Shown here one piece after another: positions 2,708-7,440 of a stretch of DNA of 8,282 nt. This DNA is from a virus. Lineage: Duplodnaviria; Heunggongvirae; Uroviricota; Caudoviricetes. The stretch lies in IMG/VR virus record IMGVR_UViG_2724678985_000018, one strand, 5' to 3'. Numbering within the stretch: position 1 is the stretch's first letter; each line of letters starts with the position of its first letter. Below the pieces are notes generated by a model. It was given only the letters and a program-made list of their open reading frames with translations, ran no database searches and was not told where the DNA came from. The translations under genes were made by a program, and so were the position numbers.

Positions 2708-2784
2708 TGGCGCGTTGTAGTGGAGTCTAACCACTGACCGATTGCTTAGAAGGCAATTGCTCTGTCCGACTGAGCTAACAACGC
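2708..2784 (-). tRNA. tRNA-Arg (anticodon TCT)
   Basis: Manual cloverleaf from the reverse complement: GCGTTGT-TA-GCTC-AGTCGGACA-GAGC-A-ATTGC-CTTCTAA-GCAAT-CGGTC-AGTGG-TTAGACT-CCACT-ACAACGC-G-CCA. All four stems pair perfectly, CCA is encoded. The T-loop TTAGACT is non-canonical. Confidence 0.75.
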
Positions 2785-2797
2785 ATGATGCTGATAA

Positions 2798-2874
2798 TGG
2801 ACCGCCATCGGGGACTTGAACCCCGCGCAGCCAGCTTCGAAGGCTGGCGCTCTGTCCCGATGAGCTAATAGCGG
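2798..2874 (-). tRNA. tRNA-Arg (anticodon TCG), atypical acceptor end
   Basis: Manual cloverleaf: CCGCTAT-TA-GCTC-ATCGGGACA-GAGC-G-CCAGC-CTTCGAA-GCTGG-CTGCG-CGGGG-TTCAAGT-CCCCG-ATGGCGG-T-CCA. Canonical T-loop and perfect D, anticodon and T stems. Acceptor stem starts C1-G72 with a T at the discriminator position, both unusual. Confidence 0.6.
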
Positions 2875-2883
2875 TATGTAATA

Positions 2884-2959
2884 TGGTGGCCCTTGCTGGA
2901 TTTGAACCAGCGACCTGGCGATTATGAGTCGCTCGCTCTCACCACTGAGCTAAAGGACC
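2884..2959 (-). tRNA. tRNA with CAT anticodon, most likely tRNA-Ile2 (lysidine type) rather than Met
   Basis: Manual cloverleaf: GGTCCTT-TA-GCTC-AGTGGTGA-GAGC-G-AGCGA-CTCATAA-TCGCC-AGGTC-GCTGG-TTCAAAT-CCAGC-AAGGGCC-A-CCA. Closely resembles the E. coli ileX/ileY tRNA as I recall it, differing in acceptor and anticodon stems. One A-C mismatch at the base of the anticodon stem. Confidence 0.75.
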
Positions 2960-2987: not shown

Positions 2988-3701
2988 TCAATAATCAAGC
3001 CCTTGCCTGGATACATATCTGTCTGGCGGGAAGCCATAATAGCGGTGAAATACAGAAATAAAGTAGGACCTGCTTGAATAACCGCATTTTTCTGCTATAG
3101 CCTGTCCATATCCATGCCGGGAACATAACATATTTACAGCAACACGCATCCGCTCTTCCAGCAACAAGCGACTGAACATGCCCCCTTCATTTTTCAGTTT
3201 TGTCTTTAACAAACTCTCACTCATATGCAACTGTAGAGCAATCGCACCAAGCGTCCAGCTTGCTGATATATCTGTCTGAATTATCGCCCTGACTTTGGCA
3301 CTTATGCTGGATAAACATCCACTTAAAAACAATGACATCCGTTCATCTGTTTCAAACAGAGACAGGCAGGCCATCATAAGAAACATATCCGTGACCTCTC
3401 CGGAAAATCCCTGGCTGGTAATTAAAGCCGCAGCCAACGCAGGATTGTTGGGTTCCAGCAACAGGTAAAGCGGAATGTCAGTCAGACGAGTCCTCGTCAG
3501 CTTATGCTGACTTTCCAGATATTGACTTACGACGGATTCGCTTATATCGACAATTTTAACTTTGCCATAATGCATAAGGAAAAGCTCCCTGATGCATTTG
3601 GTGGCCAGAACGACTGAGCCTGGCTTAAGTGACAACGTATCCTTTTCAAGAAAAATATTAATTGGGGAGCAAACCATGATAACTGAACAGACAACAGCCA
3701 T
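2988..3701 (-). CDS. AraC/XylS-family transcriptional regulator (C-terminal double helix-turn-helix, N-terminal domain without a recognisable cupin)
   Basis: 237 aa. C-terminal WTLGAIALQLHMSESLLKTKLKNEGGMFSRLLLEERMRVAVNMLCSRHGYGQAIAEKCGYSSRSYFISVFHRYYGFPPDRY is a textbook AraC helix-turn-helix domain. Locus is visibly AT-rich compared with its flanks. True start may be the second Met (ATG at 3677). Confidence 0.8.
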   Translation of the reverse strand: MAVVCSVIMVCSPINIFLEKDTLSLKPGSVVLATKCIRELFLMHYGKVKIVDISESVVSQYLESQHKLTRTRLTDIPLYLLLEPNNPALAAALITSQGFSGEVTDMFLMMACLSLFETDERMSLFLSGCLSSISAKVRAIIQTDISASWTLGAIALQLHMSESLLKTKLKNEGGMFSRLLLEERMRVAVNMLCSRHGYGQAIAEKCGYSSRSYFISVFHRYYGFPPDRYVSRQGLDY

Positions 3702-4256: not shown

Positions 4257-4823
4257 TCAAAAAGCAATAACTTTTTTATCTATACCAAAAGCCATAACCA
4301 TTGGTTTGTACAAAATAAATTCTGCCACCTTTAGCCAATGCTCAATGCGTCTTTCACAGGTTCTTAAACTCCATTCCGGATGTGCATCATTCAGCAGTTC
4401 AGCCATTTTGCGCTTAGTCATCCCCCGCCCCACATAACGCTGACTCAGAACATTGAGCAGCCCGGGATAACCTGCCAGTACTTCACCAATAACCCTGTCG
4501 ATTATTAACGCCTCTGAATCGGTACAATGTGCCAGCCAGCTTTTTTGATTGCCGTTGATCATATCCCGCAAAAAAGCCTCAAGTTCAGGTTTGTCCAGAC
4601 CCGCTTTTTTCATCCTCCGGAGCGCCTCGTTAATTGCCGTTTTTGTCAGCTTTTTAGAGGTCAGTAATTGGTTGAACATATTTCCCGTCTTACCGTCGCC
4701 AATATACGACCAACGCCCCCACATACGCAGTTTCCCCTGGATCCAGACACTTTCCAGCGTTTTCAGGCGTAAATGCTCACCGCTTTTGCCTGTAATTTCC
4801 GGGTATATCATATTTATGCTCAC
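4257..4823 (-). CDS. Putative late-gene antitermination protein (Q-like)
   Basis: 188 aa. Directly downstream of rusA with a 4-nt GTGA start/stop overlap, followed by an intrinsic terminator and then tRNAs and cargo. The segment LRMWGRWSYIGDGKTGNMFNQLLTSKKLTK resembles the WGAW...F.GL.TSK N-terminal segment I recall from phage 82/DLP12-type Q proteins. Annotated start is GTG at 4823; an alternative ATG is at 4811. Call rests mainly on synteny. Confidence 0.5.
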   Translation of the reverse strand: MSINMIYPEITGKSGEHLRLKTLESVWIQGKLRMWGRWSYIGDGKTGNMFNQLLTSKKLTKTAINEALRRMKKAGLDKPELEAFLRDMINGNQKSWLAHCTDSEALIIDRVIGEVLAGYPGLLNVLSQRYVGRGMTKRKMAELLNDAHPEWSLRTCERRIEHWLKVAEFILYKPMVMAFGIDKKVIAF

Positions 4824-7100: not shown

Positions 7101-7256
7101 TTACTTCTCAGATTCGTAGTCTACGAAGACAGCGACCTCCGTCTGACCGGTTCGGATTCGCACCTCGCAGAGGTCTTTCCTCGTTACCAGTGCCGTCACT
7201 ATGACGGTTAAACAGATGACGATCAGGGCGATTAACATCGCCTTTTGCTGCTTCAT
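7101..7256 (-). CDS. hok: Hok/Gef-family type I toxin (membrane peptide, 51 aa)
   Basis: MKQQKAMLIALIVICLTVIVTALVTRKDLCEVRIRTGQTEVAVFVDYESEK is near-identical to E. coli HokD/RelF-type sequences as I recall them. GGAG ribosome-binding site upstream. The six-frame track extends this frame to an upstream ATG at 7313 (70 aa), but the conserved Hok start is the internal Met. Confidence 0.9.
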   Translation of the reverse strand: MKQQKAMLIALIVICLTVIVTALVTRKDLCEVRIRTGQTEVAVFVDYESEK

Positions 7257-7440
7257 AGCCTGCTTCTCCTTGCCTTTCGGCACGTAAGAGGCTAACCTAC
7301 ATGTGTTCAGCATGGATTGAGCCTCAGATTAATGTTAAGCGTCTTGCAGGACGCGTAATGTTAACTGGGGCTTTTCTCTATCTGCCGTTGGTGTTCATGC
7401 CCGAGGCAGATAGCCTCAAGCACCCGCTGCAATTCTACTT
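7257..7440 (-). promoter_or_regulatory. hok mRNA leader (expected to contain the mok start region and the Sok antisense-RNA target; sok would be encoded on the + strand here)
   Basis: Minus strand contains GCTTGAGGCTATCTGCCTC and TAGCCTCTTACGTGCCGAAAGGCAAGGAGAAGCAGGCTATG, which resemble the 5' end and the region just upstream of the start codon of plasmid R1 hok mRNA as I recall them. Candidate -10 TAGAAT just upstream of the presumed 5' end. Exact sok coordinates not determined. Confidence 0.45.

Follow-up and report, generated by a model that had tools for sequence, protein, structure and literature searches.

Do the tRNA genes of a prophage serve as working decoders of rare codons, or are they partly degenerate copies? 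This question is raised by an 8,282-nucleotide stretch of the Caudoviricetes record IMGVR_UViG_2724678985_000018 (the whole stretch is called the window here), which carries three closely spaced tRNA genes at 2708-2959. An original prediction, made from the sequence letters, had left both answers standing. We propose, with a probability of about 80%, that the genes form a tRNA unit that lies on the late strand of the phage, is processed by host enzymes and tops up scarce host tRNAs, with ileZ and argN intact but argO probably weakened.

The window carries an ileZ-argN-argO tRNA unit

ARAGORN called three tRNA genes and no others in the window; all lie on the minus strand, with the anticodons CAT, TCG and TCT in that order. 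The first is an ileZ-type tRNA-Ile2 gene of 76 nt (2884-2959; anticodon CAU), the second an argN-type tRNA-Arg gene of 77 nt (2798-2874; UCG) and the third an argO-type tRNA-Arg gene of 77 nt (2708-2784; UCU), separated by spacers of 9 nt (2875-2883) and 13 nt (2785-2797). These boundaries, anticodons and gaps reproduce those of the original prediction, and neither of the outcomes that it had named as contrary to it, a change of anticodon or boundary or a pseudogene call for the second or third tRNA, arose. Against the Rfam tRNA covariance model, which has a gathering score of 29 bits, the three genes scored 69.4, 56.0 and 66.7 bits (E = 6e-14, 3e-10 and 3e-13, respectively), placing the calls far beyond chance. 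A position table showed 21 of 21 stem pairs intact in each tRNA, and the CCA end is encoded in all three genes. On the identical Escherichia coli O111 sequence, RefSeq annotates tRNA-Ile, tRNA-Arg and tRNA-Arg, none of them flagged as a pseudogene.

The prediction had likened the triplet to the ileZ-argN-argO arrays of Shiga toxin (Stx) phages, and comparison with phage 933W (GenBank AF125520) bears this out. The 933W record annotates ileZ-argN-argO with the codons AUA, CGN and AGA, a putative tRNA promoter and flanking terminators. The two arrays have the same anticodons, order, strand relative to the late genes, 9- and 13-nt spacers and downstream terminator, and are 93.4% identical over 304 nt, with 1, 3 and 6 differences in ileZ, argN and argO, respectively. 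The window tRNAs also lie on the strand of the genes from Q to lysis; the prediction had proposed co-orientation with late transcription, leaving the strand itself unstated. The CAU-UCG-UCU order, the homology to 933W, the late-strand slot between Q and lysis and the terminator together identify the array as a copy of the ileZ-argN-argO unit of lambdoid and Stx-type prophages of Escherichia and Shigella. It differs from 933W in its surroundings: no stx genes lie 3' of the window array, where the next gene would, uninterrupted, be of the TerB family and an IS66 element now intervenes, and its upstream neighbour is an AraC-type (YdeO/GadX-like) regulator rather than Q and the late promoter.

The terminator that the prediction had assigned to the triplet was found at 2668-2695 on the minus strand (AGGCTCGC-TTCG-GCGGGCCT followed by TTTTTTG). 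In a terminator scan its hairpin (2695-2676) comprised 8 pairs, 6 of them G-C, with a 4-nt loop and the tail TTTTTGTATC; a G+C-rich hairpin is thus followed directly by a T-run, as in rho-independent terminators. The fold has an energy of -15.6 kcal/mol (z = -2.5), aligns with the annotated terminator 3' of argO in 933W and is identical in five sister prophages. Upstream of the array, a candidate sigma-70 promoter (2970-2998, minus; TTGATT, 17 nt, TATTAT) ends its -10 element 11 nt before ileZ. It occupies the relative position of the putative pT annotated in 933W, and TTATTAT is conserved in the alignment.

That the tRNA calls are false, or the anticodon assignments wrong, is an alternative to which we give next to no weight. 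The form that it would most readily take is that the CAT tRNA is an elongator Met tRNA, and ARAGORN did label it Met, a label given from the anticodon alone. Single-sequence minimum free energy folding, furthermore, returned a cloverleaf for argN and for neither of the other two tRNAs, with weak z-scores. Energy folding of single sequences often misses tRNA cloverleaves, however, and we did not use this result, which is uninformative either way. Against a miscall stand Rfam scores of 56-69 bits for a threshold of 29 and the annotation of identical genes in many genomes. In an alignment, the elongator Met tRNAs metT and metU differ from the CAT tRNA throughout the acceptor and anticodon stems; K-12 ileX is 88.2% identical to it and shares C4-G69, C5-G68 and the anticodon arm (28-42). 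The acceptor pairs C4-G69 and C5-G68 are determinants for TilS. Its body therefore marks the CAT tRNA as one of the ileX/ileY (Ile2) type, a lysidine-dependent class, not Met, and with the Rfam scores and the annotated copies this essentially refutes the alternative.

The ileZ gene differs from that of 933W at a single position, C3U (base 2957), which creates a U3·G70 wobble. This pair is lineage-specific, as 933W and the sister prophages carry C3-G70, and the C3 allele scores 72.5 bits compared with 69.4 for the U3 allele of the window. Both ileZ and argN retain the complete invariant core (U8, A14, G18, G19, A21, U33, G53, U54, U55, C56, A58 and C61), and both are structurally intact with one extra G·U wobble each. 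The uppermost pair of the ileZ anticodon stem, moreover, is a mismatch, A27·C43, in place of the G27·U43 of host ileX; since 933W and nearly all copies have it, the mismatch is a fixed feature of the family. The exact 3' half of ileZ was searched for in 185,579 species-representative genomes and, two metagenome bins excepted, was not found outside Escherichia and Shigella.

Codon usage is consistent with a modest codon-supply role

The codon usage of 26 late genes and 15 early/nin genes of the prophage was compared, using annotated coding-sequence coordinates, with a small baseline of 21 prophage-flanking host genes (5221 codons). CGG was enriched 3.1-fold over the host in both the late (p = 9e-10) and the early genes (p = 2e-6), and AGG 2.4-fold in the late (p = 0.04) and 6.4-fold in the early genes (p = 5e-6). 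The codons singled out beforehand for a check of the late genes were ATA, AGA and CGA, and for these the expectation did not hold: ATA was enriched in the early genes (2.2-fold, p = 0.002) with no enrichment in the late genes, and AGA and CGA were not significant in either set. Among the genes examined, the AraC-type gene beside the tRNAs had the highest density of both ATA and AGG (21 per 1000 each). Codon usage thus fits a modest codon-supply role, above all for the UCG tRNA in reading CGG.

The analysis shows directly what the array is, how it is built, what it is related to, how its alleles arose and which codons the phage genes favour; expression, modification, charging and the benefit to decoding are inferred, as follows. 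The unit would be transcribed on the phage late strand, probably from its own weak promoter and by Q-dependent read-through from the late promoter, and the transcript would end at the hairpin terminator of the array. Host enzymes would process this transcript, in which the CCA ends are already encoded. The ileZ product would be expected to receive lysidine at position 34 from host TilS and to read AUA, the argN tRNA would read CGA and CGG, and the argO tRNA would read AGA and, more weakly, AGG. In this way the three tRNAs would add to the tRNA species that are scarcest in the host, to the benefit of phage and cargo genes richer in those codons than the host.

The argO gene carries a recent C56A substitution

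The original prediction had noted a T-loop TTAGACT lacking C56 in the TCT tRNA. This was confirmed: the argO T-loop reads UUAGACU, and A56 (base 2728) is its sole deviation from the invariant tRNA core, G19 being unchanged. The E. coli tRNA-Arg identity set consists of A20, C35, U36 or G36 and a purine at position 73, and argO carries A20, C35, U36 and G73. Six positions distinguish it from 933W argO, the window having U16, A37, G50, A56, C59 and C64. Two of these form T-stem pair 50-64, which is G-C in the window and C-G in 933W, a compensatory double change that shows T-stem pairing to have been under selection in the past. Two others lie at positions 37 and 56, where 933W argO has G37 and C56. 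A37 is found in most sampled copies and in host argU, with which argO also shares A20 and G73; the anticodon loops of argO and ileZ are identical to those of K-12 argU and ileX, respectively, although argO as a whole is only 69% identical to argU and lacks its C56. The G37 allele of 933W (L002, 3180-3256; anticodon loop CUUCUGA) is a minority form, carried by 6 of the ~116 copies sampled.

The closest sister prophage (L131) is 98.9% identical to the window over 361 nt, and its argO is the same save for C56. Relative to this sister, the window has one derived substitution in each tRNA, namely C3U in ileZ, C5U in argN and C56A in argO. An allele in the viral sample (L071) likewise equals the window argO except for C56. 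These comparisons identify A56 as a recent, single derived C56A change on an otherwise intact canonical allele.

How common this allele is was estimated from two sources. Our first population sample had been picked by an argO pattern, which under-reported argO variation, and arrays were therefore resampled with ileZ as the anchor. In the ileZ-anchored sample, the argO T-loop motif was GGTTCGAAT in 121 copies, GGTTCGACT in 10, GGTCCGAAT (U55C) in 3 and the A56 form in 1. Of 5426 complete E. coli genomes, 3066 had a match to the array region, with as many as 13 such places in a single genome. The A56 allele of the window was found in 77 of these 5426 genomes (~1.4%), at 77 places, one in each, amounting to ~1.6% of detectable copies; the otherwise identical allele with C56 occupied 782 places in 530 genomes, and the major argO allele 3938 places in 2150 genomes. 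A56 occurs in at least four mosaic prophage contexts, which differ in the type of Q, in the upstream gene (AraC-like or a DNA methyltransferase) and in the state of argN (intact or with a 12-nt deletion in the anticodon arm). In all of them, A56 lies within one block, made up of spacer, argO, terminator and TerB leader, that does not vary between contexts. This distribution indicates that the A56 allele extends beyond a single clone.

Few tRNA nucleotides are as highly conserved as C56, and its pair with G19 is a key contact of the elbow (PMC7912444; PMC10424219). With G19 unchanged, the G19-C56 tertiary pair is lost without compensation in the window argO, and the removal of this pair suggests that argO is probably a weakened allele. 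The cost in covariance score is just 2.2 bits (66.7 compared with 68.9 bits for the sister C56 allele), so gene predictors would not flag the gene. As stand-ins for strain 11128, the O111 chromosome described below, we used strains E2863 and E2855, whose region is identical to the window; they have 3 and 5 places, respectively, that match the canonical argO allele. The altered copy is thus redundant, and for that reason A56 is likely to be tolerated. Most simply, argO-A56 is probably a tolerated, hypomorphic mutation and a low-frequency natural variant. Of the two answers offered for the unusual features of the array, phage-adapted decoders or partly degenerate copies, argO-A56 falls on the degenerate side; the oddities of argN, described below, show no sign of degeneracy.

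A functional role for the altered elbow itself is a long shot. Here argO-A56 would have been kept for a different behaviour toward factors that read the G19-C56 contact, such as processing enzymes, the L1 stalk and E site, or an elbow nuclease, and the array more broadly would be an anti-defence reserve. The occurrence of A56, with no other damage, across 77 genomes and no fewer than four recombinant backgrounds is compatible with such a role.

The three tRNA genes are unequally conserved

The middle tRNA had been read as having a TCG anticodon, a C1-G72 acceptor pair and a T at the discriminator position. Position by position, all three readings were verified (the discriminator being U73), and argN further has a U15·G48 tertiary pair, A20 and fully paired stems that include a U5·G68 wobble (base 2870). 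It differs from 933W argN at three positions: C5U, which creates this wobble, G57A and U63C. The description of this tRNA as non-canonical is correct for the features themselves; as the mark of a special or degenerate copy they do not hold, being family-wide. Of the 36 distinct argN alleles found on 120 viral contigs, almost all keep C1-G72 and U73, as 933W argN does, and these features are therefore neither specific to the window copy nor a sign of its degeneracy. U15·G48 is likewise shared by 933W argN and nearly all alleles sampled; a few alleles in visible decay lack the first acceptor pairs. An eight-pair acceptor stem (A-1 with U73) was also considered for argN, for which the chance expectation is ~1/3, and argO has a similar option (U-1·G73).

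The K-12 host has no UCG tRNA-Arg isoacceptor. Compared with argQ and argX, argN is 57-60% identical and differs in C1-G72, U73 and U15·G48. Both Arg tRNAs of the window have A20 and C35, as do all host Arg tRNAs compared. At the remaining identity positions argN has G36 but U73.

In relatives, argN is often damaged. Among the ~115 arrays of the first sample, it was fully paired in 54 and had 1-6 stem mismatches in 39, and in 19 the homologous segment was too damaged for an ARAGORN call. The ileZ-anchored sample (n = 168 arrays) contained 99 full CAU-UCG-UCU arrays and 39 CAU-UCU arrays without a callable argN. The defects comprise A·C or A·A stem mismatches and deletions in the anticodon arm (e.g. 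L013, L006 and L137). The window argN is one of the intact copies and has no stem mismatches. ileZ is near-invariant, with 98 of 115 copies identical in the viral-contig sample. Across these prophages, ileZ has hardly changed and argO is largely conserved, whereas a large share of them have an eroding argN.

Other variants were seen among the relatives. At the same locus, an alternative array combines ileZ with an argN-derived 'Lys(TTT)', Thr(TGT) and Gly(TCC) (L153, L133, L149, L157 and ~10 further loci). In a fusion variant (L152, L140), the 5' half of argN is joined to the 3' half of argO at the anticodon-loop CCTTC. In a truncation variant (L165, L139, L164), argO ends just past the anticodon loop; no integrase or mobile-element open reading frame (ORF) lies beside the breakpoint in L165-like loci, which makes it look like a simple deletion. 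Anticodon variants also occur, in which an argN body has TCT or GCG (L016, L073).

The array resides in a damaged lambda-like prophage

The region is 100% identical to many E. coli O111 chromosomes, for example that of strain 11128 (NC_013364.1). There it is part of a lambda-like prophage of ~49 kb (2,536,000-2,585,330; L128, L129) that adjoins a tRNA-Ser gene and whose far end holds nleC, a type III effector gene. This prophage is visibly defective, with a truncated integrase and an exonuclease gene (exo) interrupted by IS1203, which suggests that it is probably not inducible.

On the phage strand the genes run in the order RusA, a DUF1133 protein, a 65-codon ORF, the AraC-type regulator, the three tRNAs with their terminator, IS66, a TerB-family gene and DUF3927, followed by a nanS-type esterase, holin, lysozyme and Rz and then by terminase and structural genes. 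The tRNA strand carries every phage gene from the one for the Q-like DUF1133 protein through holin and lysozyme to terminase. The DUF1133 protein (4257-4823, minus) has a weak match to Pfam Phage_antitermQ (33 bits; cut-off 26), and sister prophages have a gene of the 'antiterminator Q family' in its slot, which supports its being a Q analogue and the tRNAs being promoter-proximal in the late operon. It is probably the late antiterminator of this prophage. The AraC-type regulator (237 aa; 2988-3701, minus) ends 29 nt before ileZ and is YdeO/GadX-like over its full length, below the family cut-offs; in other prophages a DNA methyltransferase occupies this slot.

A complete IS66-family element (ISEc47-like) fills positions 1-2532, with tnpA, tnpB and the transposase gene on the plus strand and inverted repeats at 1-24 and 2509-2532, so that the window begins at the left end of the element. 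Comparison with uninterrupted relatives places its insertion point immediately past the ATGTTT start of the TerB-family gene. It sits 144 nt past the tRNA terminator hairpin, parting the Q/tRNA region from the lysis and structural genes, and is absent from the sister prophages. An ORF of 81 aa (2489-2734, minus) that overlaps argO has no Pfam match and was treated as spurious.

Further RNA features were recorded in the prophage and its sisters. The early region of the prophage contains a hok/sok toxin-antitoxin locus (7101-7425, minus), with an Rfam sok match of 113.5 bits at 7251-7425 and an ORF of the Hok/Gef family at about 7101-7256 in RefSeq. Sister prophages, outside the window, have Rfam matches to the small RNA STnc100 (L132, 4063-4318; L130, 4066-4243; L131, 4063-4235). 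One sister also matches AgvB (anti-GcvB) just 3' of the TerB and DUF3927 genes, and L132 has matches to isrK and C4 antisense RNA upstream.

Weighing codon supply against a relic and a counter-defence function

Several observations weigh against a codon-supply unit. The candidate promoter, with 9 of 12 matches, is not above the expectation for shuffled sequence. argO has lost C56, with its conservation and elbow role, and the discriminator of argN is U73, as against a purine (A73 or G73) in every host Arg tRNA compared. The decay of argN in many relatives makes the need for it questionable. None of the five rare codons occurs in the major capsid gene, and ATA, AGA and CGA are not enriched in the late structural genes, so that the demand argument is modest; the host baseline comprises only 5221 codons. 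The damage to the integrase and exo, together with the 2.5-kb IS66 element between the tRNAs and the late genes, makes a benefit to the phage doubtful in this prophage. A search of the full-text literature on ileZ, argN, argO and the tRNAs of 933W and other Stx phages returned nothing usable, so that prior knowledge rests on the GenBank annotation of AF125520.

A less likely reading is that the array has no function in this defective prophage, or that at least argO-A56 has none; it would be a drifting relic, made redundant by other prophage arrays and by host argU, ileX and argX. The truncated integrase, the split exo and the nearby IS66 element fit a relic, as do the derived substitution in each tRNA relative to the closest sister, the break of a universally conserved tertiary pair with G19 uncompensated and the 3 and 5 canonical argO places in two genomes with an identical region. 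So does the family-wide decay of argN, fully paired in 54 of ~115 arrays of one sample and uncallable in 39 of 168 of the other, and so do the argO copies elsewhere that carry U55C, a truncation or a fusion. On the other hand, all 21 stem pairs of each tRNA are in place, both stem changes being C-to-U transitions that retain G·U pairing, and A56 costs little in covariance score. The identical A56 allele is also present, without further damage, in 77 genomes and at least four mosaic contexts, and ileZ is nearly invariant throughout the family.

A second alternative, which we consider unlikely, is that the tRNAs serve mainly in counter-defence, as nuclease-resistant substitutes for host tRNAs destroyed by anticodon nucleases or OLD-type defences. 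There is precedent for phage tRNAs that rescue cells from tRNA-cleaving defences: the tRNA-Thr(UGU) of lambdoid phage 21 protects lambda-type phages against P2-OLD, which has Arg tRNAs among its substrates (PMC12445682), and a general counter-defence hypothesis for phage tRNAs has been put forward that includes colicin D (PMC10264068). Like the window array, the counter-defence tRNAs (phage 21 Thr UGU against P2-OLD, Lys against PARIS, Tyr against retron Eco7) form small sets in temperate lambdoid phages. Such a function would also suit the ileZ-Lys(UUU)-Thr(UGU)-Gly(UCC) arrays of related prophages at the same locus, the A27·C43 mismatch, which shortens the anticodon stem of ileZ compared with ileX, and the only moderate support from codon demand. 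Unlike those sets, however, the window array has no Thr, Lys or Tyr tRNA, and the anticodon loops of ileZ and argO do not differ from those of host ileX and argU. The argN tRNA has A37 and a paired CAG/CTG motif at 28-30/40-42, which are determinants of susceptibility to P2-OLD (PMC12445682). Evasion of P2-OLD or of other anticodon-loop cleavage by the window tRNAs therefore came out negative, given the host-identical loops and, in argN, the paired CNG motif and A37. We know of no rescue activity for Ile2 or Arg tRNAs, nor of a nuclease specific to tRNA-Ile2 or tRNA-Arg(UCU).

Meaning for temperate-phage tRNAs

The ileZ-argN-argO array is already known and annotated, in the GenBank record of 933W and, as the exact sequence, in RefSeq, and its value as a discovery is therefore small. 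The sole point specific to the window copy is the C56A allele of argO. Present in ~1.4% of complete E. coli genomes, this natural allele lacks the near-universal C56 and could be a ready-made natural test of how important the G19-C56 elbow pair is in vivo. The unequal evolution of ileZ, argN and argO, in turn, could help to choose between codon supply and counter-defence as the function of temperate-phage tRNAs.

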